DNA of 64,000 nt from Lentisphaerota bacterium (GCA_016873655.1 VGWI01000001.1:71983-135982); one strand, 5' to 3'; positions 38,021-60,537 are shown, counted from the first letter of the stretch. Notes: a model not told the origin generated them from the letters alone. Made by a program: numbers and translations.

Positions 38021-39697
38021 CTACTGCCTGGTCCGGCGCAGGGACAAGGCTCTTGCCTCCATCATCGCGAGGATGATCCGGTCCGGGGAAGCGAACTCCG
38101 GCGTGAAGACGACGTCGGAGATCAAAGCCGCCAGATCCCCTTCAGGTTCCCCGCAGACCACAAAACCGGTGCCAGGGCTGAGTTTGATCAGGGCCCTGAC
38201 TATGCCTGCCGCGCCGTGTTGAAGCATGCCTATGTCAAACACGGCGCCGTCAAGCGCCGGTTCTGACTCCATGAAAGCCAGAGAGGACGCTATCTCGCCC
38301 GCTCTTTCGACCTTCATTCCGAGCAGTTCCATGCGCTCGCGCAGGCCGGCGTGCTGTCTGGAAGTGGCCATCAGCACGTGCCAGTGGGACGCGTAGGCGG
38401 CGAGTTCCTGGGGCAATTCCGAACGGTCCTCAGTCAACGAGGATGGATCGGCAGCCGGCATCCATACAACGTAGACGGGTGACCTGTCCCTGCCTTGCAG
38501 GGAGTCGAGCCGGCCGCCGCACTCAGCAACCGCCGACTCGAGTACTGACTGAATGATTCCAGGCTCGGATCCCGGGGACTGATCGTGCACCTCTTCACCC
38601 GTATTCCGGCGTTCCGCGTCCCCGCCCTGCGATCTTATGACCACGGCGCCGGCATAGTCGCCTCTTCGTTCCAGCCCCAGTTCCGGATCAGTGGCGGCTG
38701 ATATGGTTACTGTGCCTGGAACATGGTTTGCATCCGCGGCAAGGAGGCCGAGGTTGAGGACCACCTGTTCCAGCTGTGCTCGTGGCATGCCTACAGGCGG
38801 AACGCTCTCGACACTCGTCTCGACCGTCCACCCTCTCGACAGTGTGTCGCGGAGTACCGCGGCGGCCATCTCGAGGGGGTCTCTGACGTCAATGGTTGGC
38901 TGCCACGAAACGGACGGTCTGATCAGGCCTAGCAGGCGCGCTGTGACCATCGACCCGTGCCGCGCGGACTGGTCGATGGCGCGAATCGAGGACGCGGATT
39001 CCTCGGACCCCGCGGGGAGCCTGGCAAGCAGCGAAGCGTGGCCGGCGATCGAGAACAAGAGTTTGCTGAAATCGTGAGCCACACCGTTTGCCATCTGTTC
39101 CAGGAGTTGAAGCCTGGCCACCTGGCGATTGCGCAATCGCGCCCTGTTCATCATTGTGATGTCGCTGATCATTACCACCGACAACCCTTCGGACTGCTGG
39201 GCTCTGAATCGCAGCGTGCGTTTCTGTCCGCCGAACTCGCATGGGCGCTCAAGTTCAACGGGGTCCGCCGGCCGGGCGAGAAGTTCGCAGTCGGCGTGTG
39301 TCAGGCACGGGAAGACGTCCCCGAGCCTGACGGTGCCTGGCACATCCGGAAGTGTGGCGAAGGATCTGGTCGCCGCGTTGAATCCCGTGACGCGGCCGCT
39401 GCGGTCGGCAGTGAGTATGGCATCCCTGAGGTGGTCGAGTTCCGTGACGAACTTGCCAACCCGTCTTCGCCCTTCGGCCTCGGCGGCCATACGGATACCC
39501 CAAAGGCCGAACGCGCCGGCGATGGACATGAAGCCGAGGGTCAAAGCCCACAACGCGGCTGATGTGGCGCGCGCCATGTCCGGCGACAGCCTGTCGTCCA
39601 GGAAATGCATTGTCTGAACGACGGCAAGAGATGCCGTGGCGAACAGAAGAAGAAGAAGGACGGCATATGCCCAGGTCTCTGACCTGAAGCCTCTCAC
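38021..39697 (-). CDS. membrane sensor histidine kinase with degenerate C-terminal receiver-like domain
   Basis: Two N-terminal TM helices. H-box VAHDFSKLL, an HATPase region, and a C-terminal roughly 170-aa receiver-like fold. GTG start overlaps the secretin TGA (GTGA). Confidence 0.75.
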   Translation of the reverse strand: MRGFRSETWAYAVLLLLLFATASLAVVQTMHFLDDRLSPDMARATSAALWALTLGFMSIAGAFGLWGIRMAAEAEGRRRVGKFVTELDHLRDAILTADRSGRVTGFNAATRSFATLPDVPGTVRLGDVFPCLTHADCELLARPADPVELERPCEFGGQKRTLRFRAQQSEGLSVVMISDITMMNRARLRNRQVARLQLLEQMANGVAHDFSKLLFSIAGHASLLARLPAGSEESASSIRAIDQSARHGSMVTARLLGLIRPSVSWQPTIDVRDPLEMAAAVLRDTLSRGWTVETSVESVPPVGMPRAQLEQVVLNLGLLAADANHVPGTVTISAATDPELGLERRGDYAGAVVIRSQGGDAERRNTGEEVHDQSPGSEPGIIQSVLESAVAECGGRLDSLQGRDRSPVYVVWMPAADPSSLTEDRSELPQELAAYASHWHVLMATSRQHAGLRERMELLGMKVERAGEIASSLAFMESEPALDGAVFDIGMLQHGAAGIVRALIKLSPGTGFVVCGEPEGDLAALISDVVFTPEFASPDRIILAMMEARALSLRRTRQ

Positions 39698-41445
39698 GGC
39701 TGAGCCTTTGTCTCCGAAGCCTTGCCGGTGTCTTCGGAGGGCTTCTTCTCTTCGGCTTCCATCTTCCTGATCAGTCCCTCAATCTCCGCTTCCATCTGCT
39801 TGCGCTTCGGGGAATCCTGGAGCAACTTGCGGTGAACGAGTGCGGCGTCTTCGGGCAGGCCCTGTTTCGGGCCTATACTCCCCGGCGTAGCGATGCCGAG
39901 GGTGACGAAAATTATCGTTTCCTGCTGGTTCTTCTCCTTGTGCGTATGCGAGAAGAGGAACCGGCCGATGAGGGGTATGTCTCCAAGGAGAGGAATTTTC
40001 TTTGTCCTGTCCCCCTCTGTCGTCTCCGTGAGGCCGCCGATGGCCACCGTCTTGCCGTTTTCGAGGCAGAACACCGTCTGTATCTTCTTGGTGGCGACGA
40101 CCGGGAATGTCTGGCCGTTAGGCGCTATCTTGTCTTCCAGGTAGCGGGTCAACTCCGGCTCTATCCTGACGGTGATATTCGAACTCGTGTTGATGGTCGG
40201 GGTCACTGTCAGTTTTACGCCCGTGTCAACCGGGTCGCCGGCGTTGTAGGTTACGAAGGGCGCCGTTGTTTCCGTCGCCGGGGTGACAACCGACTGGAAT
40301 GGCCGCTCACGCCTGCCGACATGTATTACGGCAGATTCCTCGTTAGCGACAATCAGCTTCGGATTTGAGACAATGCTGACTCCGTTCATCTGTTTCAGGG
40401 CGCTAAGGACCAGGCGGAAGTCATCCACGCTGAGCACCGAAGTGCGGATGTCGGCAATCTGCTTCACAAACGAATCTTTCACATCTTCGGTTACCCTCTG
40501 GTTCTGGTCGAGAGAGTCGGCGATCGTGTAAGTCGGTTCGATGCTGCGGATAGTAACCACCTCGCCATCCGGGCTTTCCTTGAAATCCACGGTTTCGTTC
40601 TGAATCTGCTTGCCGTAGATATCGTAGTACTTCCTGACCCCGTCGTTCGCGATCCTGTTGCCGGCACGCGAGTCTGCTGCTGCCACAGAGTTGTTGCGTG
40701 TCCGGTTTTCGGAATAATTCCAGTTGAAGGGGCTGGCTGAAGCGCCATAGCCCTCGAGCACCTGCCAGTTGATTCCGAGATCGCGGATGGCCGAGTCGTT
40801 CAACTCCAGGAATTTCGCCTCTATGAAGACCTGTTCGCGAAGCTTGTCTATTTCATCGATGACTCTCTCCACCTCGATACGGTTGGCTTCGGTTGTCTTG
40901 AGGACAAGCGCATTGCGCGACGGGAAGGCGGAGACGGCCGCGTTCTGCACGAGCAGGTTGCTGACAACCATGGAGACTTCGGGGACGGTTGCGTATCTAA
41001 GGAAGATTGTTTTGACCACCATCGGTTCCGGCGCGTCCGCCGGCTTGGGGACGATGCTGTACACTGCGGAGCCCGGCGTCTTCTCCATGAGCGCGAGATC
41101 ATGCATGTCAAGAATTGCCGTCAGGGCGGGTTTCCACTGAACATCGGTGAGGTTGACCGTGACGCGCCCTTCGAGATTTGTTGCCGAGGCCACTATGTTC
41201 GCGCCTGATATGCGGGTGAACATGCGCACCACGTCCACCAGAGCAACATCATCGAGAGTGATGCTGATGAGGTTGGCGTCGTTGGTTGTTGCCGGCAGGA
41301 CCGGTCCCGTATCGTCGGCGATGGCTACGAACACGACTTCATTCGATGCGGCCGCGGTTCCATTGGTCTGCGCGACGGCGACCCCGCGCAGCACGCCGAG
41401 AACCGAACACAAAGCAAGCAGGCACAATGGACGTATACTCTTCAT
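39694..41445 (-). CDS. secretin (type IV pilus PilQ / T2SS GspD family)
   Basis: Signal peptide MKSIRPLCLLALCSVLG. C-terminal secretin domain with PLLGDIPLIGRFLFSHTHKEKNQQETIIFVT. N-terminal repeated N-domains. Confidence 0.85.
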   Translation of the reverse strand: MKSIRPLCLLALCSVLGVLRGVAVAQTNGTAAASNEVVFVAIADDTGPVLPATTNDANLISITLDDVALVDVVRMFTRISGANIVASATNLEGRVTVNLTDVQWKPALTAILDMHDLALMEKTPGSAVYSIVPKPADAPEPMVVKTIFLRYATVPEVSMVVSNLLVQNAAVSAFPSRNALVLKTTEANRIEVERVIDEIDKLREQVFIEAKFLELNDSAIRDLGINWQVLEGYGASASPFNWNYSENRTRNNSVAAADSRAGNRIANDGVRKYYDIYGKQIQNETVDFKESPDGEVVTIRSIEPTYTIADSLDQNQRVTEDVKDSFVKQIADIRTSVLSVDDFRLVLSALKQMNGVSIVSNPKLIVANEESAVIHVGRRERPFQSVVTPATETTAPFVTYNAGDPVDTGVKLTVTPTINTSSNITVRIEPELTRYLEDKIAPNGQTFPVVATKKIQTVFCLENGKTVAIGGLTETTEGDRTKKIPLLGDIPLIGRFLFSHTHKEKNQQETIIFVTLGIATPGSIGPKQGLPEDAALVHRKLLQDSPKRKQMEAEIEGLIRKMEAEEKKPSEDTGKASETKAQP

Positions 41446-41469
41446 CTGTTCCTCCCGCCCCGGATTCCA

Positions 41470-42174
41470 CTATTGTTTTGGATAAGTCACTACCGCCGCA
41501 TATGCAATCTGGCCCGCAGCATCCACTCTCCAGACCGTGTTTGAGCCAACGGCACCGCTCGGGCTGGTCACCGTGTAGACTCCGGAGTTCGGATTGATCG
41601 TGCCAAGCGCCGGAATGGAAACGTTCCAGTTCCCGAGCGGTTCGATGCCACCCGAGGATCCGAAGTTGACGGCTGTTATGGTGAACGTGAATGGAGCGTT
41701 CGTCTGCGCCGCAGTGAGGGTTACCATGCCCGGTATTATCAGGAACGTTGTGTCCGCCGTTATTTCCGCCGATGCGGTCAGTCCTTCATCGTCGGTCACC
41801 GTGACACTGTTCGGCGCGACCTTGTTTGCTCCGTAGATCGCGGTGGCGGTGTTGGCGCTCACGCCGATGATGTCGCCGAACGCGATGTTTGCGGCCTGCC
41901 AGGAATAGGGAGGGGTTCCGCCCTTGACCGCGAATGTCACCTGCTGGCCGGCGAATGTCACGTTGTAGGTTTGGGGCACTATCGCGACTCCCTGTCCGAA
42001 CACGGGATTGCCGGGGTCGGCCAGTTCGTCCACGTCAGGCTGGTTGGCCCCGAAATAGGAGTCAATGGAATTGATGTCGCTGACGTCAGGGTCGTCCTCG
42101 CATCCACAGAACAGGACAGCCCCTGCAGCAACAATGGCAACCGCGGCCAACGCAACCGGCATCTTCAGTTTCAT
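41470..42174 (-). CDS. hypothetical lipoprotein with Ig-like beta-rich region
   Basis: Start refined to the ATG at 42174: MKLKMPVALAAVAIVAAGAVLFCGC has a lipobox. The Thr/Ala/Gly-rich beta-strand composition is typical of Ig-like domains. Sits between the PilP-like gene and the secretin. Confidence 0.5.
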   Translation of the reverse strand: MKLKMPVALAAVAIVAAGAVLFCGCEDDPDVSDINSIDSYFGANQPDVDELADPGNPVFGQGVAIVPQTYNVTFAGQQVTFAVKGGTPPYSWQAANIAFGDIIGVSANTATAIYGANKVAPNSVTVTDDEGLTASAEITADTTFLIIPGMVTLTAAQTNAPFTFTITAVNFGSSGGIEPLGNWNVSIPALGTINPNSGVYTVTSPSGAVGSNTVWRVDAAGQIAYAAVVTYPKQ

Positions 42175-42644
42175 GGCTTGGTCCTTTCTTCGTCCGTGCT
42201 CAGGCGATAATACAGTCTCTGGCTGAACACGCCCTTCTTGTTTATGTCCGTTATCTTCCAACAGTACGTTACACCGTTGCGGGTTATCCAGCCTGTACTG
42301 CCGGCTTCGACGAGACCGATTTCATCCAGCACGGCAATGTAACGTCCTGAGCGTGCCCGGGTTATGCCCTTCACCGTGAGAGAAGGCCATTCGATGGGAA
42401 CAGTTATCTCTGGTTCCTTTTCCTCTTCCAACCCGCCGTCAACAGAGTCCGGAGGGGGAGGGACATAGCCGACCGGCCAGAACGGGTCCCGCTCAACCAT
42501 TGATGGAGGCATGTTCGAGGCGCCGCCGGCTGCGTCTGGCGTTGCTTCCTCCGACGCGCGGCAGACGGAGACCTCGATGGCAAGGAGAAGGAGAATCGAG
42601 AAGGGAGTTCTCAATTTCGATCGTATTCCAGGCGGTGTTGTCAT
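42171..42644 (-). CDS. PilP-like pilus assembly protein (by position and size)
   Basis: 157 aa with an N-terminal signal/anchor. ATGA overlap with the upstream gene. Lies between a PilO-like gene and the secretin, as in pilMNOPQ operons. Confidence 0.4.
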   Translation of the reverse strand: MTTPPGIRSKLRTPFSILLLLAIEVSVCRASEEATPDAAGGASNMPPSMVERDPFWPVGYVPPPPDSVDGGLEEEKEPEITVPIEWPSLTVKGITRARSGRYIAVLDEIGLVEAGSTGWITRNGVTYCWKITDINKKGVFSQRLYYRLSTDEERTKP

Positions 42645-43294
42645 TGTTCGATGGCGCCTTCGGCCGCTTGAGCCACCAGCGTTTCCTCTGCTTCGGGATC
42701 ACCCCATATGGGCCACTGAACCCGGAAAGTAACACGATGCCGTTGCGGGTCGCGGTCATCCGACGTAACTTGCACTTTGGAGACGCACAAATACGGGTTC
42801 CCCGTCTCCACGCGGTTGAGAAGTCTGGCCAATGCATTCATGCTGCATTTAGCGGTTATTTCCGCCGTGTACGACTTGAAAGTCTTCTTCGGTTGATCCG
42901 GGCCGGCCGACGGCTCGCGAGTTTCCAGAACCGAAACGCCCAGTTCATTGATCGATTGTATGCCGGAATCAGGGTCGGTGCACTGCTCCATGTACCGCGT
43001 GGCGCCGATGAGGTAGTTGCCGTGCCGCGGTTTCAGAAGATACCGCGCCGATATGTCGCGGACTTCGTTTGCGATGGCTATGTTCTCGGCCCGGGTCGTC
43101 TCAATGCGCGATATCAGCACCGCAGAACTTCCAAGGTTCCTGTTGATCCTGTCCATGTCGTCGGTGAGCTTCTGATTCCTGGCCATGAGGGGACGAATCA
43201 GGCCGAAGGCTACCCCGTAGACGACGCCGATGGATCCGACTGCGACGAGCACGAGAACCTTGATGCGGTCGTTGCGGTTGTCCGGAAGCTTCAT
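42641..43294 (-). CDS. PilO-like bitopic membrane protein
   Basis: Single N-terminal TM (VLVLVAVGSIGVVYGVAFGLI) followed by a coiled-coil and periplasmic domain. 217 aa. Start overlaps the PilN-like stop. Confidence 0.5.
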   Translation of the reverse strand: MKLPDNRNDRIKVLVLVAVGSIGVVYGVAFGLIRPLMARNQKLTDDMDRINRNLGSSAVLISRIETTRAENIAIANEVRDISARYLLKPRHGNYLIGATRYMEQCTDPDSGIQSINELGVSVLETREPSAGPDQPKKTFKSYTAEITAKCSMNALARLLNRVETGNPYLCVSKVQVTSDDRDPQRHRVTFRVQWPIWGDPEAEETLVAQAAEGAIEQ

Positions 43295-43911
43295 CAGAAG
43301 GCCCTCGGCTTGTACCGGCAGCGTATCTCGAAAAGCCTGTCATCAGGAGATGCATTCTTAGACGTATCGGCTGAGAATGCGGCGACTTCGACAGACTCCA
43401 GCTGTGTCGCGAAGACGGAGAAAGTCCGCAAGTTCTGCTCCAATTCATCGACGGCAAGATCTGAGCCCTTGCCCACGGATCTGCCCCTGATCTGCATCGT
43501 GAAGCTGCGCGCCATGGCCTTGTCTTTCTCGAGGGTCAGAAGAACCTGATCGGTGTTCAATTCGACGAGCTGTATTGCCGGTGGCACGAGGCGTGGCAGT
43601 GCGGCAAGCTGGGTGTGCCAGACGATCTGAGAGCGACGCCAACCGTCGAGTTCTTCCTTGAGTCGCCTGTTGACGTTCAGCTCCGCCGCGATCCTGATGG
43701 CCATTTCCTGCTTCGGCTCCGCCTCCAGCCATTTCCTTTCCAGTTTGTCCACGGCGGCGGTCTTGTTCCACACGTGAACGGCGACGAACGCAAGAGACGC
43801 CCCGATCAGGACGGGTATGGAAAAGGCGATGACCTTCACCACGAATGCCGGCGTGAACAGGCTGGGGTTGCGCTGTTCTGACGGCAGGATAAGGTCAACG
43901 CGCAGATTCAT
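43294..43911 (-). CDS. PilN-like bitopic membrane protein
   Basis: Start refined to the ATG at 43911 (MNLRVDLILPSEQ, resembling the PilN INLLP PilM-binding motif), then one TM and a periplasmic coiled-coil. ATGA overlap with the pilM stop. Confidence 0.5.
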   Translation of the reverse strand: MNLRVDLILPSEQRNPSLFTPAFVVKVIAFSIPVLIGASLAFVAVHVWNKTAAVDKLERKWLEAEPKQEMAIRIAAELNVNRRLKEELDGWRRSQIVWHTQLAALPRLVPPAIQLVELNTDQVLLTLEKDKAMARSFTMQIRGRSVGKGSDLAVDELEQNLRTFSVFATQLESVEVAAFSADTSKNASPDDRLFEIRCRYKPRAF

Positions 43912-44918
43912 TTGGCCTCCAGCGTAGCCTGACAAGCTCCGATCGCCGCTGCAAACCTGGCCGGGTCGCCAATGTCCTCTCCCAAAACGCCTTCGGGAAC
44001 CGACGCGTGCTCAAACGGATTCCATCTTTCAACGTCGAATGCGGTTTGCATCGGCGTGATCAGGTCTCGTCCCGCCTCGACCGAGCCGGAGATGAACAGG
44101 GACCGGATGCGGCATGCTTCGCGGCGCTCCACGTAGTCTCTCGACACTGCGATTCGGTTCAGCATCTGCCCCGCAACGTCTCCCGCGATGTCGGAAACAT
44201 CGAACGCCCCGTCCGTCAGAACTCCCATTGCGGTTTGCGCATCGACTCCGAGCGATTCCTGTACGCGTTCGAGGATGCTGTGAGTGCCCAGTTCAAGGCG
44301 CTGGCAGAGCACCGGGATGCCTTTGCTGAAGACCGCGAAGTAAGAACACCGCTCTCCTATGTTCAGTGACGCGACCGCTTTTGCCTTGAAGGACATGCCC
44401 GGTCCGTTCGTGAACGCCGTCATCGCGGCGAGCCCGGCTATCTCGACAGAATGCGGGGCAGGTCTTCCGGACGGGAAAAAGGACAGTGCTCCTGATATCT
44501 CGTCCTCCGCAACCGCCGCGGCGAGAACGAGGGATTCCTGCCGTCCGTGTCCTTCCGTAATGACCTTGTATCCGATGCGACGGCCCGATGTGTCCCGGAT
44601 CCCCAAGCCTGTCACAAGGCGTGATTCCAGTCCGCCATCATGCAGGCCGGGCAGCATGAGCAGTTTCACTGTGGCTTCAGAGCCTTCTATTGCAATTGCA
44701 GCGTGCGGGGCGCGGAGCTTGGCCGGGAGCTCCATCGGCTTGCGCGCTTCTTCGGAGTCTTCGTTGGCACGTGGCAGCGCCGCGGCTGCCGACAGCGAGG
44801 TGGTCGCGCCGACGCGACGCATTCTTACAGCCAGCACGACAGTGCGCCTGACGTCGATGCCTACAACGTCAGCAGGCCCCTGCTTAACTTTGTCGAGAAT
44901 GTCTTTGAACGATGCCAT
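43908..44918 (-). CDS. pilM: PilM-like actin-fold pilus assembly ATPase-like protein
   Basis: 336 aa. The N-terminal VVGIDVRRTVVLAV phosphate-1-like motif matches the PilM/FtsA actin fold. It is the first gene of the pilMNOP-secretin array. Confidence 0.6.
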   Translation of the reverse strand: MASFKDILDKVKQGPADVVGIDVRRTVVLAVRMRRVGATTSLSAAAALPRANEDSEEARKPMELPAKLRAPHAAIAIEGSEATVKLLMLPGLHDGGLESRLVTGLGIRDTSGRRIGYKVITEGHGRQESLVLAAAVAEDEISGALSFFPSGRPAPHSVEIAGLAAMTAFTNGPGMSFKAKAVASLNIGERCSYFAVFSKGIPVLCQRLELGTHSILERVQESLGVDAQTAMGVLTDGAFDVSDIAGDVAGQMLNRIAVSRDYVERREACRIRSLFISGSVEAGRDLITPMQTAFDVERWNPFEHASVPEGVLGEDIGDPARFAAAIGACQATLEAK

Positions 44919-54248: not shown

Positions 54249-54265
54249 AAGCAGGGCTTGTGCCA
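54249..54265 (-). promoter_or_regulatory. sigma-54 (RpoN) promoter of the pilin gene
   Basis: Minus-strand TTGGCAC-aagcc-CTGCTT with GG and GC spaced by 10 nt, about 72 nt upstream of the pilin ATG. A sigma-54 activator gene is adjacent. Upstream direct repeats GCAAGAT lie at 54297-54303 and 54310-54316. Confidence 0.5.
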
Positions 54266-54439: not shown

Positions 54440-55825
54440 CTATGCTTCCGAGTCGGGGAGCTTTCTGTAGAGTGTCGCGAGGCTTATCTTGAGAGCTTTG
54501 GCGGCTTCTTCCTTGTTGCCTCGAGTAAGAGAGAGCACTTGCTGCAGGTACTCTTTCTCCTTCTGGCGCAGGAAGGCTCTCAGAGATTTTCCTCTCTCTG
54601 CGTCCAGGGATCCTGGTTGGTTCTGTCCTGCCGTTGCCGGAGAGGGGGCTGACTTGGCTGACTCCACGACTTTTGCGGGAAGGTCACCGGGTTTGATTCT
54701 GCCGTCTGTGGCGAAGGCCAGCGCATGCTTTATCGCGTTCTCGAGCTCTCGCACATTGCCGGGCCAGTTGTAGATCTCCATCACGTGACTGGCTTCAGGA
54801 TCAAGTGTCGGAAGATCCTTGCCTTCAGGGGTTTCGGCTCGAATGACGTGGTAGATTAGAGGCAGTATGTCATCCTGTCTCTCGCGAAGGGGTGCTATCT
54901 GTATCGGGATCACGCTCAGGCGATAGTAAAGATCCTCGCGGAACTTGCCTTCCTGGATAAGGCTCTCGAGTTTGGTGTTTGTTGCGGCAAGGACCCGTGC
55001 ATCCACGGGGATGTTCTCGTTGCTGCCGACGCGCCGGACTTCCTTCTCCTGCAATACGCGGAGGAGTTTGCCCTGAATTGAGAGCGGCATTGACCCTATC
55101 TCGTCAAGGAAGATGGTGCCGCCTGAGACTGCCTCGAAAAGGCCCTGCTTATCGGAAGCGGCTCCGGTGAAGGCGCCTTTCACGTGTCCGAACATCTCGG
55201 ACTCGAGAAGTGGCTCAGGGAGGGCCGCGCAGTTCACGGCAAGGAACTTCTTTTCTTTGCGCGGGCTCTGCGTGTGTATCGCTTTTGCGACAAGCTCTTT
55301 GCCTGTGCCGCTCTCCCCATAGATGAGAATCGTGGTATCGGTCGGCGCCACCTTGCGGATCATCTCGCACACGTTCTTCATGGACGGGCTCTCGGCGATG
55401 ATGTTCTCCATGCGATACTTTGTTGTGAGCATCGCCTTGAGATCGGCGTTTTCGGTGAGTGCGGTACGGTAGGCGAGTGCTCTCTGGACGGTGATCAGGA
55501 GTTCATCGACCTTGAAAGGTTTCGTGACGTAATCAAACGCCCCGAGTTTCAGTGCCTTGATGGCGGTTTCGACCGAACCGTAGGCAGTGAGCATTATGAC
55601 GGAAGTTGAGGGCGAGTCGTGCCTCGCAAACTGAAGGATGTCCATGCCCCCGACTGGCTTCATGTAGATGTCGCAGAGCAAGAGATCGAAATCCTGCTCC
55701 TTGATCAGGGCCTGAGCTTTCTCGCCATTGTTCTCCGGCACGACTTCGTAACCTTCAGCACGCAGTATCGTGCTGAGCACGCTCAAGATGCTCGGTTCAT
55801 CGTCGACAACCAATATCCTGGGCAC
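54440..55825 (-). CDS. sigma-54-dependent response regulator (NtrC/PilR family: receiver + AAA+ + Fis-type HTH)
   Basis: Receiver domain (ILVVDDE...LLLCDIYMKP). AAA+ sigma-54 interaction domain with Walker A GESGTGKE, the GAFTGA motif and ESEMFGH. A C-terminal HTH. Likely GTG start at 55825 after GGAAGGAG. The ORF track's ORF starts at 55867. Confidence 0.85.
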   Translation of the reverse strand: MPRILVVDDEPSILSVLSTILRAEGYEVVPENNGEKAQALIKEQDFDLLLCDIYMKPVGGMDILQFARHDSPSTSVIMLTAYGSVETAIKALKLGAFDYVTKPFKVDELLITVQRALAYRTALTENADLKAMLTTKYRMENIIAESPSMKNVCEMIRKVAPTDTTILIYGESGTGKELVAKAIHTQSPRKEKKFLAVNCAALPEPLLESEMFGHVKGAFTGAASDKQGLFEAVSGGTIFLDEIGSMPLSIQGKLLRVLQEKEVRRVGSNENIPVDARVLAATNTKLESLIQEGKFREDLYYRLSVIPIQIAPLRERQDDILPLIYHVIRAETPEGKDLPTLDPEASHVMEIYNWPGNVRELENAIKHALAFATDGRIKPGDLPAKVVESAKSAPSPATAGQNQPGSLDAERGKSLRAFLRQKEKEYLQQVLSLTRGNKEEAAKALKISLATLYRKLPDSEA

Positions 55826-56043: not shown

Positions 56044-56550
56044 CTATTTCAGGATGACGTAGATGTTATCGCTGTCATAGATGTTTCGGCCCCGTCCGTT
56101 GGGGCCGAACGAGCCCACGACTACTCTCATCCGATTGCCCACAAGGTAATCAGGGTCGAAGAAGTACGGGTTGCCCCACGGATCATTCTCGATTTCCGGT
56201 ACGTACGGACCCCTCCAGTTGCTGTATGCCGCAGTTGAGGAGAGGATGCCAGCATCGCTTGCCCTGAGGTCCCAGATTTCACGGTCTTGAGAAACGTTCC
56301 TGATCAGGGCTCCGGGCCAGCGCCCGGTGTCCCACGCAAGCTGTTTGATTCCGGCAGCCAGTATTTCCACTTCTGCCATCGCCTTCCGCTTCTTGGTCTC
56401 GGTGTTTGTCTTGTTCAGTGCCGGAATGGCTATCGCCAGCAGTATCATGACCACGCTGAGCGTGATCATGATCTCCATAAGGGTGAAGCCTGGCCCTGAT
56501 TGCCCTCGAGCGAAGGCACGACGCTCTGCTTCTTCAGTCGGAATGTTCAT
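56044..56550 (-). CDS. GspG-like pseudopilin (prepilin-type N-terminus)
   Basis: GFTLMEIMITLSVVMILLAIAIP N-terminus and the GspG hallmark NDPWGNPYFFD. Start refined to the ATG at 56550 (MNIPTEEAERR...). The ORF track's ORF extends to 56850. Confidence 0.75.
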   Translation of the reverse strand: MNIPTEEAERRAFARGQSGPGFTLMEIMITLSVVMILLAIAIPALNKTNTETKKRKAMAEVEILAAGIKQLAWDTGRWPGALIRNVSQDREIWDLRASDAGILSSTAAYSNWRGPYVPEIENDPWGNPYFFDPDYLVGNRMRVVVGSFGPNGRGRNIYDSDNIYVILK

Positions 56551-56600: not shown

Positions 56601-56617
56601 AGCAGGCTCGGTGCCAG
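56601..56617 (-). promoter_or_regulatory. sigma-54 promoter candidate for the GspG-like pseudopilin gene
   Basis: Minus-strand CTGGCAC-cgagc-CTGCTT, the same unusual CTGCT -12 element as the pilin promoter, about 50 nt upstream of the ATG at 56550. Confidence 0.45.
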
Positions 56618-56772
56618 AAGGCGGGTGGATCGGAAATAGGATCGCGACGCCGAATGGCATACTTCGTGAGCGAAACAAGTCGCAAGTGTTTGAACGTCTT
56701 CGGGTAGCGCGTTGTCATTATCGAGAACTGGATGGCGGGCAAGTCTCTGCTAGGTAGATGGTTGTGCAATAT

Positions 56773-56788
56773 GGCCCGAGAGTTGCTA
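56773..56788 (+). promoter_or_regulatory. sigma-54 promoter candidate for the divergent minor-pseudopilin operon
   Basis: TGGCCC-gagag-TTGCT on the plus strand, about 50 nt upstream of the ATG at 56839. Confidence 0.35.
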
Positions 56789-56838: not shown

Positions 56839-57291
56839 ATGAGAAGGCACATCTCAACAAGAAGGTTGGTGTTTTGGCGCTGTGCCGGCAAGTGCGGTTT
56901 CACGATGATTGAGGCGCTTGTTGCCGTGACGATCCTTGGGTTTTTTGTCGTGGGCGTATGTGCTCTGGTTGTTACGACGCGGGAAACGATGGATACAGCG
57001 CGTGCTCACTACACGGCTTCCAACATAGCCAAGAACCGCATCGAAAGGCTTCATGCGCTGGTATTCGATGACCTGGCGCAGTACGCGGAGGCGGGGGTTG
57101 TCGTGAACGACTCCGGCATGCCGTCATCGTCCGGTAACTTCATGCGTACGACGGTGGTTTCCAACGTGAACGACAGGCTGTTTGACATCAGGTGCGTTGT
57201 TACCATGCGCAACCGGGTGTCGCTTGCTTTCGAGGGGGGGGGCGAGTCGGTGCAGACTCTTATTGCGCGTTACGAGGCCCCGGAACGATGA
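56839..57291 (+). CDS. minor pseudopilin (GspH/GspI-like; prepilin-type N-terminus)
   Basis: Basic leader followed by GFTMIEALVAVTILGFFVV. 150 aa. ATG at 56839. Stop overlaps the next gene's ATG (ATGA). Confidence 0.65.
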   Translation: MRRHISTRRLVFWRCAGKCGFTMIEALVAVTILGFFVVGVCALVVTTRETMDTARAHYTASNIAKNRIERLHALVFDDLAQYAEAGVVVNDSGMPSSSGNFMRTTVVSNVNDRLFDIRCVVTMRNRVSLAFEGGGESVQTLIARYEAPER

Positions 57292-59348
57292 AGATTATGG
57301 AACATGACAGTGGCTTGTCAGCAGGCTTCAGCCTGGTCGAGTTGAGCGTTTCGATGGCCATAACACTGGTTGCCCTCGCGATCTCGATGGCAGGGATGAA
57401 GTACGCCATGAGAGGTTCTTCGCAAAACTCGGTGCAGAACGAGCTTGATGTGGACGTTCAGTTGGCGATGGAGAGAGTGAAGTACGATCTAAGGATGACT
57501 TCGTTGGATCAGGTGTTTTTCTATCCGGAGGGGCCTGGTCCGTATTCTGCCATGTCTTTCCCGATGGCCTCGGACAGCGACGGGGATGGCCGTCTGGATT
57601 TCGACGGCGAGGTGTTGCTGTGGAACCGGACCGTGATCTATCACGTCTGGCAGGGGCAGCCGTATCAGTTGAGAAAGACGGTTTTCTCGCCAAGAGTCAA
57701 CCTGACGGACGTGCAGCGACAGGCTCAACTGAACGCCGTTTTTGCGAACGGATCGGGAGCCGGCACGTACAACGGCACCAATGCCCAGTCAACCGTTGTG
57801 TTCGAGAACCTGTTCCAGTGGCAGTTGCGGACTGTCGGTTCCACCTACGATTGCTACGCTCCTTCAGTGAGAAGGGAAATGGTTTCGTTCGGCTCGGCAG
57901 TTCTCGATTCAGGGACTCATTCGTTCAGGTTTGAGGTTGTGTCCAAGAACTCGGCGAGTTCCGGGCGAAACATCGGGCTTGACCTGATCTTTGCCTCCCC
58001 AAGCTACAGTCCTAGAGAGGGCGAGGCTCAGTTGCCGGCGTCGGTTCAGGTTGGTGTGGCAGCCGCGAGGGAGTACAGGCCGGGCGGATCATGGAGCGGG
58101 AACCACCATCTGCTCTTCCCTGCGACGGCTAACGGCCACTACTTCGATCTCTCCATGGAAAACGACCGATGGGAGGAGACGAATTTCGATTCGAGGGGCG
58201 ACGAATTCAAGAACGCGAGAGTTGTGTTCGATGACACTTTGACGCCAAAGGACTTCGTGGTCCGGCTTGACGGGCCCGGCACGAACTGGACCTCTGCGGC
58301 CCAGACGGGCACAACGAATACCGCAGAGGTGCTTGTCAGCGATATCCAGAACAAGGTTATCCGCGTGCCCATCCGGGGCGGCATGATGATAGGTGGAGGC
58401 TGGCTTGGATTCAGCGGACGCAGGTGCCGGATGGCGTTCAAAGCCGGTTCAGCTTCGTTCACGATTGATTCGGCATTCATCTCCGAGAGCGCCAGTAGCG
58501 AGACGAACACCATGAACACGATTGCGACCAGCACCAGGCGCATTACGTTCGGAGGAGCGAATGGGATCGGCATCGCGGCCGGGCAGACTGCATGGTCAGA
58601 CCTGATTGACTTCCCCCTGGACAAGGACAAGAGCTACCACGTCACTTACTCCGTCAGGAACGGGGCCGGCCATGGCTACACGGTAGGCTGGCCACAGTCT
58701 GTTCCTTCCAGTCTGCCAGGTTGCTACGTCGTCAATGCCCCTGTTGGCGGGGGAGAGGCAGTCGCATTGCAGGCGGACTGGCGTGCCAGAGGGGATGTTT
58801 TCCACACGAACATGGTTCTCGGTCTCCGAACCATCTACTCGACGTGTCCGGAGAAGGGCCGGTATGTTTCTCCTTCTTTCGACACGCAGCAGAGCGCGCC
58901 AGCCTACAGTACGATCGCGTGGAACGCGGATGTCCCTTCCGGCACGGCCCTGAACATGTACGTTCGCACCGCGGCCAACAGCGCGATGTCAAGCGCAGCG
59001 GCGTGGACAAACCTGAGTGCAGTAAGCCAGGGGGCCATCAGCCCTGGGAACGGAAGGTACGTGCAATTCGCCGCCGACCTCTTCTCAAGCTCGACGGGAG
59101 AACAGACCCCGTTGCTCAAGGACGTGAGGATCAGATGGATCGGCGTCAAGCGCGGCGTGGATGTTGCCGCCGTGGTTACGAAAGGCCCTGACTACGGGGT
59201 CGTCAAGGTTACGGTTGACGGGAAGCCCTTGAGCTCGGGTTTGATGATAGATCTGGAGATATTCAAGGAGGCAAGAGGGTTCAAGGGCACCAAGCTAATG
59301 ACTTCGAGCCTGCGGGCTGAGGTGATGCCCAGGAATTCCGGAAGGTAG
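57288..59348 (+). CDS. giant prepilin-type protein (686 aa) with EF-hand-like calcium-binding loop (PilY1/large minor pilin-like)
   Basis: N-terminus GFSLVELSVSMAITLVALAI is prepilin-type with Glu+5. DSDGDGRLDFDGE matches the DxDxDGxxD Ca-binding loop known from PilY1. The remainder is beta-rich. Confidence 0.6.
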   Translation: MKIMEHDSGLSAGFSLVELSVSMAITLVALAISMAGMKYAMRGSSQNSVQNELDVDVQLAMERVKYDLRMTSLDQVFFYPEGPGPYSAMSFPMASDSDGDGRLDFDGEVLLWNRTVIYHVWQGQPYQLRKTVFSPRVNLTDVQRQAQLNAVFANGSGAGTYNGTNAQSTVVFENLFQWQLRTVGSTYDCYAPSVRREMVSFGSAVLDSGTHSFRFEVVSKNSASSGRNIGLDLIFASPSYSPREGEAQLPASVQVGVAAAREYRPGGSWSGNHHLLFPATANGHYFDLSMENDRWEETNFDSRGDEFKNARVVFDDTLTPKDFVVRLDGPGTNWTSAAQTGTTNTAEVLVSDIQNKVIRVPIRGGMMIGGGWLGFSGRRCRMAFKAGSASFTIDSAFISESASSETNTMNTIATSTRRITFGGANGIGIAAGQTAWSDLIDFPLDKDKSYHVTYSVRNGAGHGYTVGWPQSVPSSLPGCYVVNAPVGGGEAVALQADWRARGDVFHTNMVLGLRTIYSTCPEKGRYVSPSFDTQQSAPAYSTIAWNADVPSGTALNMYVRTAANSAMSSAAAWTNLSAVSQGAISPGNGRYVQFAADLFSSSTGEQTPLLKDVRIRWIGVKRGVDVAAVVTKGPDYGVVKVTVDGKPLSSGLMIDLEIFKEARGFKGTKLMTSSLRAEVMPRNSGR

Positions 59349-59388
59349 ACATGGTGATCAGGGCCCTTGCAGGGGCAGGGAGGTAGCG

Positions 59389-60537
59389 ATGAGACTGTTC
59401 ACTGGAAGAGGAAGTGCGAGATCGGGATCGGCCATCTTGTCGGTCATCGTTGTTCTCAGTTCGGTGGCGCTTGTGCTGGCGATTTCTGTGTCGTCCAGTC
59501 TGCAGCGCGCCCACCTGGCGAGAAAGCTCTCCAATCGTGTTCGCGCACACGCGATAGCGGAGGCCGGAGTGGCCGACGCCTACGCTGCCCTGTACACGAA
59601 CTGGGGGGCGAGAACGAATTCCGTGGCATTCCCGGTCAAGTCATTTGGCGGCGGGACGTTCGACGCTACGGTCACCTCGACTGACCCGTATTGGGCAGTG
59701 ATTTGCTCCACGGGTTGGTACGGCGGAGTTGAGCAGAGCGTGATTCTGGACGTGAAGCTGGCAGTTGAGACTCAGTCCGGCCCGAGCAGCCCGGCTTTCG
59801 ATTGCACGATATTGGCCGAGAGGGCTATCACCTGGAGCGGCGGCGGTGATTTCAGATCAAACGGAGTTATCAGGGGGAACGCCGCACTCACGCAGTCTGG
59901 CAGCGGACAACTGAACTGCGACGTCAAGGCGACTGGGGCAGTCAGGCTCAACGGCAACTCGGGCTACATAGACGGAGACGTGTGGGCGCCTGAGATCAGT
60001 GGGAAGACAAGCAAGATAATGGGGGCGATGCATGTTGAGCCGGTGGCCGCGATGCCGATCCCGGTTCTTGACCTCACTCCCTACTACAACCATGCCGATT
60101 CGCAGGTGCCTCGTCAGGTGTTCACGGGCAAGAAGACGATCAACAGCAACCTGGTGGTTCCCGGCGGCATCATGTGGGTGAACGGCGACCTGGACATCAG
60201 CGGGAACATTGACCTGACTGGTTGCTTCATCGCCACCGGCGACATAAAGATCGCCGGCAATGGCAGGCACTTCAAAGTGAACGGCTATCCGGCCTTCGTC
60301 AGCAGGGACGGTTCGATCAAGTTCCCCGGCGGCAAGGAAATAGAGGGGTTGCTTTACACGCGGATAGGCGACGTTGATATGTCGGGCGGCGGCCACATCA
60401 GGGGGTCGATAATCTGCGGTGGTGAGTTCAAGAAAACAGGCGGATCCACCGTGTTCAGCTACGTCAAATCGGTGCCTGCAGTGCCCGGTCAGGTTCAGAC
60501 GCAGGGCAGGGTGCTGGCGATGGCCTGGCAGAAGTAG
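59389..60537 (+). CDS. pseudopilin-like protein with C-terminal beta-helix/solenoid repeats (PilX/ComZ-like)
   Basis: Hydrophobic N-terminal helix GSAILSVIVVLSSVALVLAISV. Repeated G-x-I/V-x-I/V-x-G turns (GNIDLTGCFIATGDIKIAGNG..., GGHIRGSIICGG) are typical of parallel beta-helices. Confidence 0.5.
   Translation: MRLFTGRGSARSGSAILSVIVVLSSVALVLAISVSSSLQRAHLARKLSNRVRAHAIAEAGVADAYAALYTNWGARTNSVAFPVKSFGGGTFDATVTSTDPYWAVICSTGWYGGVEQSVILDVKLAVETQSGPSSPAFDCTILAERAITWSGGGDFRSNGVIRGNAALTQSGSGQLNCDVKATGAVRLNGNSGYIDGDVWAPEISGKTSKIMGAMHVEPVAAMPIPVLDLTPYYNHADSQVPRQVFTGKKTINSNLVVPGGIMWVNGDLDISGNIDLTGCFIATGDIKIAGNGRHFKVNGYPAFVSRDGSIKFPGGKEIEGLLYTRIGDVDMSGGGHIRGSIICGGEFKKTGGSTVFSYVKSVPAVPGQVQTQGRVLAMAWQK

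Follow-up and report, generated by a model that had tools for sequence, protein, structure and literature searches.

The closest described systems are the GspI-GspJ-GspK pseudopilins of type II secretion systems (T2SS), the PilV-PilW-PilX proteins of type IVa pili (T4aP) and the Thermus cluster, in which TTHA1218 (PilA2, GspI-like), TTHA1219 (PilA3, GspJ-like) and TTHA1220 (ComZ) follow one another in this order (PMC5131608). ComZ is structurally similar to ice-binding proteins (PMC6561018); in cyanobacterial PilX a triangular ice-binding-like beta-solenoid interrupts the pilin fold before its last strand, and the protein is proposed to plug the tip where PilY1 is absent (10.64898/2026.02.12.705559). 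Of the modules grafted onto modular type IV pilins, carbohydrate-binding ones belong to the most frequent, and GspI and GspJ are called non-modular (PMC8179133). PilC of Streptococcus sanguinis is a glycan-binding pilin with a lectin module and an I-like partner pilin (PMC9934059).

A window of 64,000 nucleotides from a Lentisphaerota bacterium, the whole stretch of DNA analysed, contains three consecutive pilin-like genes (g1, g2 and g3). With a probability of roughly 0.7, a Kiritimatiellota/Lentisphaerae-type host uses the products of this operon as the core minor pilins of its type IVa-like pilus, where they would make up a priming and tip complex of the I-J-K type; as modelled, g2 would probably be its glycan-binding, modular J subunit. 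The gene order corresponds to the I-J-K order of TTHA1218-TTHA1219-TTHA1220, a correspondence missed in the first-pass annotation of this DNA; the minor pilins, the prepilin nature of g2, the aspartate-rich loop and the ComZ likeness proposed there held up, and the PilY1 label for g2 and the signal given for g3 did not. Sequence-level homology between the triad and the Thermus cluster is undetectable, g3 has 382 residues against 498-518 in the crystallised ComZ chains (6qvi), g2 is about three times the size of PilA3 and has a CBM-like beta-sandwich part of ~450 residues and a Dx[DN]xDG loop, and the host belongs to a mesophilic PVC-group lineage. No family HMM of the GspI-GspJ-GspK or PilV-PilW-PilX sets reaches threshold on the triad, whose largest extra mass is on the J subunit and whose K-subunit insert is a beta-solenoid (g3) instead of the alpha-domain of GspK. 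The triad is a variation on a known minor-pilin theme, the unusual part being the sugar-binding-like domains together with a conserved calcium motif in g2.

Gene layout and prepilin signals

The minor-pilin operon of the first-pass annotation was recovered, at the positions given there, as three consecutive plus-strand open reading frames, and the same genes (150, 686 and 382 aa) were obtained by independent gene callers on several public contigs. The features are:

56772-56787, plus: sigma54-type -24/-12 promoter-like element (TGGCCCGAGAGTTGCT), its end 52 nt before the ATG of g1
56839-57291, plus: g1, 150-aa minor pilin, GspI/PilV-like, class III signal ...GKCG/FTMIE
57288-59348, plus: g2, 686-aa modular minor pilin, predicted GspJ/PilW-like pilin module and CBM-like beta-sandwich modules
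57324-57494, plus: g2 class III signal G13-F-S-L-V-E18 and alpha1 helix (residues 13-69)
59377-59383, plus: g3 ribosome-binding site AGGGAGG, 5 nt before the ATG, read from the sequence
59389-60537, plus: g3, 382-aa putative ComZ/PilX-type tip pilin, GspK/PilX-like N-terminus (G13/SAILS, no Glu5)

The stop codon of g1 and the start codon of g2 overlap as ATGA (57288-57291), so that the translational linkage proposed for all three genes applies to g1 and g2, but not to g3, which follows g2 after a gap of 40 nt without translational overlap and has its own ribosome-binding site.

In the g1 signal (G20/FTMIE25), G20 and E25 are invariant in five orthologues; in that of g2 (G13/FSLVE18), E18 is invariant and G13 is present in at least 90% of 50 homologues. 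The N_methyl model gave 25.2 bits for g1, above cutoff, and 17.1 bits for g2, below the cutoff of 21.2, with 36 of the 50 homologues matching at E<=0.01. The leader of the large protein, on which its reading as a pilin had been made to depend, is conserved, and its modelled alpha1 helix spans 54 residues. The N-terminus of g3 (RSG/SAILSVIVVLSS; family consensus G-S-A-L-x-T-V-L) has an invariant Gly13, a retained hydrophobic tract and Ser or Thr at position +5, and is of the GspK/PilX type without Glu5; the pattern G-F-T/S-L/M-I/V-E, earlier ascribed to all three proteins, is present in g1 (GFTMIE) and g2 (GFSLVE) and not in g3. Five class III signals were found in the window with a loose six-frame pattern, all within open reading frames and four of them clustered at 53.8-57.4 kb.

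For g1, the PilV model (TIGR02523) gave E 4e-9 and the GspI model E 1e-4, each short of its cutoff, and hhalign aligned it over its full length with E. coli GspI (77% probability, 115 columns).

Modules and calcium-type loop of g2

57573-57599, plus: D96-S-D-G-D-G-R-L-D104, calcium-binding-type loop (Dx[DN]xDG..[DE]) between model strands 88-94 and 112-120
57783-59147, plus: all-beta region (residues ~166-620), about three CBM-like beta-sandwich modules, with approximate boundaries from AF2 secondary structure
59151-59348, plus: conserved C-terminal beta-hairpins (residues 622-686; AF2 strands 622-679), which may complete the pilin fold or be a subdomain of their own

The AF2 model of g2 (pLDDT 88.7) has an alpha1 helix at residues 16-69, followed by strands. 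In the fold search the pilin module matched the T2SS pseudopilins EpsJ, XcpW and GspJ, with Thermus TTHA1219 the best among pilins, and the predicted structure has a J-type pilin fold; the gene lies between the I-type and K-type genes, an order kept in five loci. The GspJ/PilW family models (T2SSJ, PilW and TIGR gspJ; Pfam and NCBIfam) gave nothing for g2 at E<=0.1, the Pfam search gave nothing beyond N_methyl, and with E. coli GspJ hhalign aligned the N-terminal alpha1 helix alone. The sequence HMMs of GspJ, PilW, GspK and PilX all stay below threshold for the proteins of the window, so that g2 and g3 are assigned as J and K from predicted structures together with gene order.

By the model, the pilin module of g2 is GspJ/PilW-like and the bulk of the protein is CBM-like beta-sandwich, both of which the first-pass annotation had missed. 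With the family profile, a match to the xanthan-binding module 7ehg was obtained (E 1e-6), in keeping with a CBM-related beta-sandwich fold; no Pfam or InterPro signature was matched by the grafted modules. The closest CBM-like template stands outside the CAZy CBM families; its sugar binding is confined to the interface with the esterase domain, and it has no independent pocket (PMC9105624). The family consensus is strongly conserved up to the last residues, and longer family variants have an additional middle segment. The beta-sandwich part of ~450 residues is probably ligand-binding, most likely glycan-binding; beta-sandwiches can also bind proteins. Both g2, with its CBM-like sandwiches, and g3, with its solenoid, join a pilin module to non-pilin modules. 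S. sanguinis PilC (lectin module, with PilA) and PilB (vWA module) likewise have ligand-binding modules on a pilin module and predicted tip exposure, whereas g2 has about three modules, is a J-type core minor pilin and comes from a diderm, its ligand binding being predicted.

DSDGDGRLD (residues 96-104) is the sole match to D-x-[DN]-x-[DN]-G-x-x-[DE] in the six-frame translation of the window; in shuffled g2 this pattern was matched in 0.3% and the strict DxDxDGxxD in 0.05%. Conservation of the loop had been put forward as a test of the earlier reading; 43 of 50 homologues have the motif in this position, and in the other seven it is lost or altered. Of the 50, 27 also have a second motif in tandem, which in the window copy is degenerate (DFDGE). 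By its sequence position just after alpha1, the loop is therefore probably placed in the pilin head. No conserved Cys pair was found in the g2 pilin module. In T2SS pseudopilins, Ca2+ substitutes for a disulfide, and by analogy the g2 loop most likely binds Ca2+ structurally.

The first-pass label 'PilY1-like' was not supported for g2, as the sole common feature is the Dx[DN]xDG..[DE] motif, which in PilY1 lies within a seven-bladed beta-propeller; the C-terminal propeller (IPR008707/PF05567) was not detected in g2, and no PilY1 structure was among the fold-search matches listed. The g2 loop has the PilY1-type pattern, including the acidic ligand at position 9, and a tip-associated role is proposed in both cases (PMC3123361, PMC3248442), but PilY1/PilC (PF05567) is not a pilin, whereas g2 is a prepilin with its motif just after alpha1. 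The motif is no proof of PilY1 membership, because it is common to at least twelve unrelated families, in which it is often structural (PMC3123361), and in g2 it stands outside any propeller.

It is quite unlikely in our estimate that g2 is a pilin-embedded PilY1 equivalent, in which Ca2+ binding and release at DxDxDGxxD would switch the pilus between extension and retraction. The loop does follow the pattern of the PilY1 851-859 type site (PMC3248442, PMC3123361), but that pattern is shared by many unrelated families, often in a structural role, and here it is probably in a pilin head and not a propeller; it is kept in most homologues, but the intact motif is missing in seven and the second copy is degenerate in the window. 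A PilT-family retraction ATPase adjoins the triad in one related locus (L007), no PilY1-like gene was seen across the five neighbourhoods examined, and bulky minor pilins have been proposed in a recent preprint to take over PilY1 functions (10.64898/2026.02.12.705559); against this, Pfam gave N_methyl alone for g2, PilY1 is not among the fold matches listed, and a regulatory role is not readable from sequence.

The predicted beta-solenoid protein g3

The AF2 model of g3 (pLDDT 91) comprises alpha1 (residues 14-70), a beta-sheet (84-126), a beta-solenoid (~141-358) and a final strand (373-381), and is read as a pilin-like domain with a large triangular beta-solenoid of the ice-binding type. The top three Foldseek matches were the ComZ chains of 6qvi (E 5.9e-8 to 5.5e-7, prob 1.0), which bears out the likeness to the beta-helix of Thermus ComZ suggested earlier, and these were followed by ice-binding beta-helix proteins including FfIBP, a pattern also seen for ComZ (PMC6561018). 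With E. coli GspK, hhalign aligned the N-terminal helix alone. Among 52 family members, DUF7305 was matched in 30, bactofilin in eight and PilX_N in three. Likened by fold description, cyanobacterial PilX has the same order of elements and the same similarity to ice-binding proteins, but a CBM-like J-type partner such as g2 is not described in that preprint (10.64898/2026.02.12.705559).

A pilus-tip adhesin or DNA-uptake complex had been proposed for the three genes; the tip-complex role is the best reading, and DNA uptake is left as a rival. A competence pilus tip with ComZ-like g3 and g1 as DNA receptor, which would be compatible with a glycan-binding g2, appears rather improbable. The structural matches of g3 to ComZ and of g2 to TTHA1219 (best among pilins), the gene order shared with TTHA1218-1219-1220 (PMC5131608) and the binding of DNA and PilA2 by ComZ (PMC6561018) suit it, but in the structural alignment g3 and ComZ share no more than 13% identity, with low TM-scores of 0.26-0.33, the DNA-binding lysines could not be mapped, and Thermus PilA3 has no counterpart of the CBM-like modules of g2. 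Since cyanobacteria have beta-solenoid PilX proteins in motility pili as well as in competence pili (10.64898/2026.02.12.705559), DNA binding does not follow from the fold; ComEA, ComEC and DprA were not seen near any of the five loci.

Gene neighbourhood, pilus type and expression

39694-44918, minus: PilM/N/O...Q-like assembly operon
39694-41445, minus: secretin (Pfam and NCBIfam), equal scores for PilQ and GspD
42641-43294, minus: GspM/PilO-like gene, E 1e-22 against its L008 counterpart
43908-44918, minus: PilM-like gene, 40% identical to the PilM_2 directly after the triad in L008
53839-54177, minus: 112-aa pilin (MSKKSG/FTLVEI), candidate major pilin, N_methyl E 6.5e-9
54250-54265, minus: sigma54-type element of the 112-aa pilin
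54440-55825, minus: sigma54-dependent response regulator (PilR-like enhancer-binding protein) with Response_reg, Sigma54_activat and HTH_8 domains
56044-56550, minus: GspG-like pilin (GFTLME ... DPWGNPYFFDPDY), 168 aa, divergent from the triad, fourth set member or filament subunit
56601-56616, minus: promoter-like element of sigma54 type for the GspG-like gene, 51 nt upstream

The search for homologous triads suggested in the first pass gave four other Kiritimatiellota-type loci (L007-L010) in which the triad order is kept and the neighbours are a PilT ATPase, PilM/N/O genes or a pilin of GspG type: the PilT/PilU ATPase adjoins the triad in L007 (453 bits, above cutoff), and in L008 PilM_2 and PilN/O-like genes directly follow it, with a PilZ gene upstream. 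In the window, the assembly genes and secretin lie 12 kb upstream of the triad; the window ORFs scanned included none for an assembly ATPase, a platform protein or a prepilin peptidase. The GspG-like pilin (T2SSG PF08334 28.8 bits, above cutoff; GspG TIGR01710 E 2.6e-14, below cutoff) is 48% identical to the pilin adjoining the triad in L010 and is likely a fourth partner.

That the triad is instead the GspI-J-K tip of a T2SS pseudopilus exporting folded exoproteins, e.g. polysaccharide-degrading enzymes, without a surface pilus is very unlikely: the g2 pilin module does match EpsJ, XcpW and GspJ, g1 matches GspI, the neighbouring pilin is GspG-like with a DPWGNPY signature, the PilO-like protein matches the GspM model and one g2 homologue is named 'type II secretion system protein J' by NCBI, but likeness to T2SS pseudopilins is also seen in Thermus T4P minor pilins (PMC5131608), the linked machinery is T4P-type (PilM_2 after the triad and PilZ upstream in L008, PilT/PilU beside it in L007), by score the secretin is as close to PilQ as to GspD, none of GspL, GspC and GspF was seen, and large outward adhesin-like modules suit a surface filament better.

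The analysis shows the structure of the genes, their signals and conservation, the predicted folds, the synteny and the promoter motifs; for the type IVa-like tip complex we infer from these its place at the tip, its part in priming and the binding of Ca2+ and glycans. If the proteins act as GspIJK, PilVWX and Thermus PilA2-PilA3-ComZ do, each would be cleaved after its conserved Gly by a prepilin peptidase, and the three alpha1 helices would bundle within the inner membrane; g3, because it has no Glu5 and its beta-solenoid is bulky, would cap the complex, which would prime polymerisation of the major pilin and then sit at the pilus tip. The J-type pilin module of g2 would be the tip anchor, with the ~450 residues of CBM-like modules facing outward. 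More tentatively, and doubtfully as yet, true pilins may in Kiritimatiellota have taken over what PilY1 does elsewhere (calcium-dependent control, adhesion and plugging of the tip), making the pilus a glycan-grabbing device. If so, a J-type pilin with tandem Ca2+ loops and a CBM-like array would be paired with a beta-solenoid K-type cap, and a retractile pilus would tether polysaccharide specialists to algal or mucus polysaccharides, or reel these in.

The search for sigma54-type motifs, in which at most one mismatch was allowed, gave only four matches in the window. All three pilin transcription units of the window are preceded by such elements, as is the triad in L007 and L010, where they lie 54 and 39 nt, respectively, upstream of the g1 homologues. 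A homologue of the PilR-like regulator is encoded upstream of the triad in L007, and expression of the triad is probably driven by sigma54 together with the adjacent PilR-like activator.

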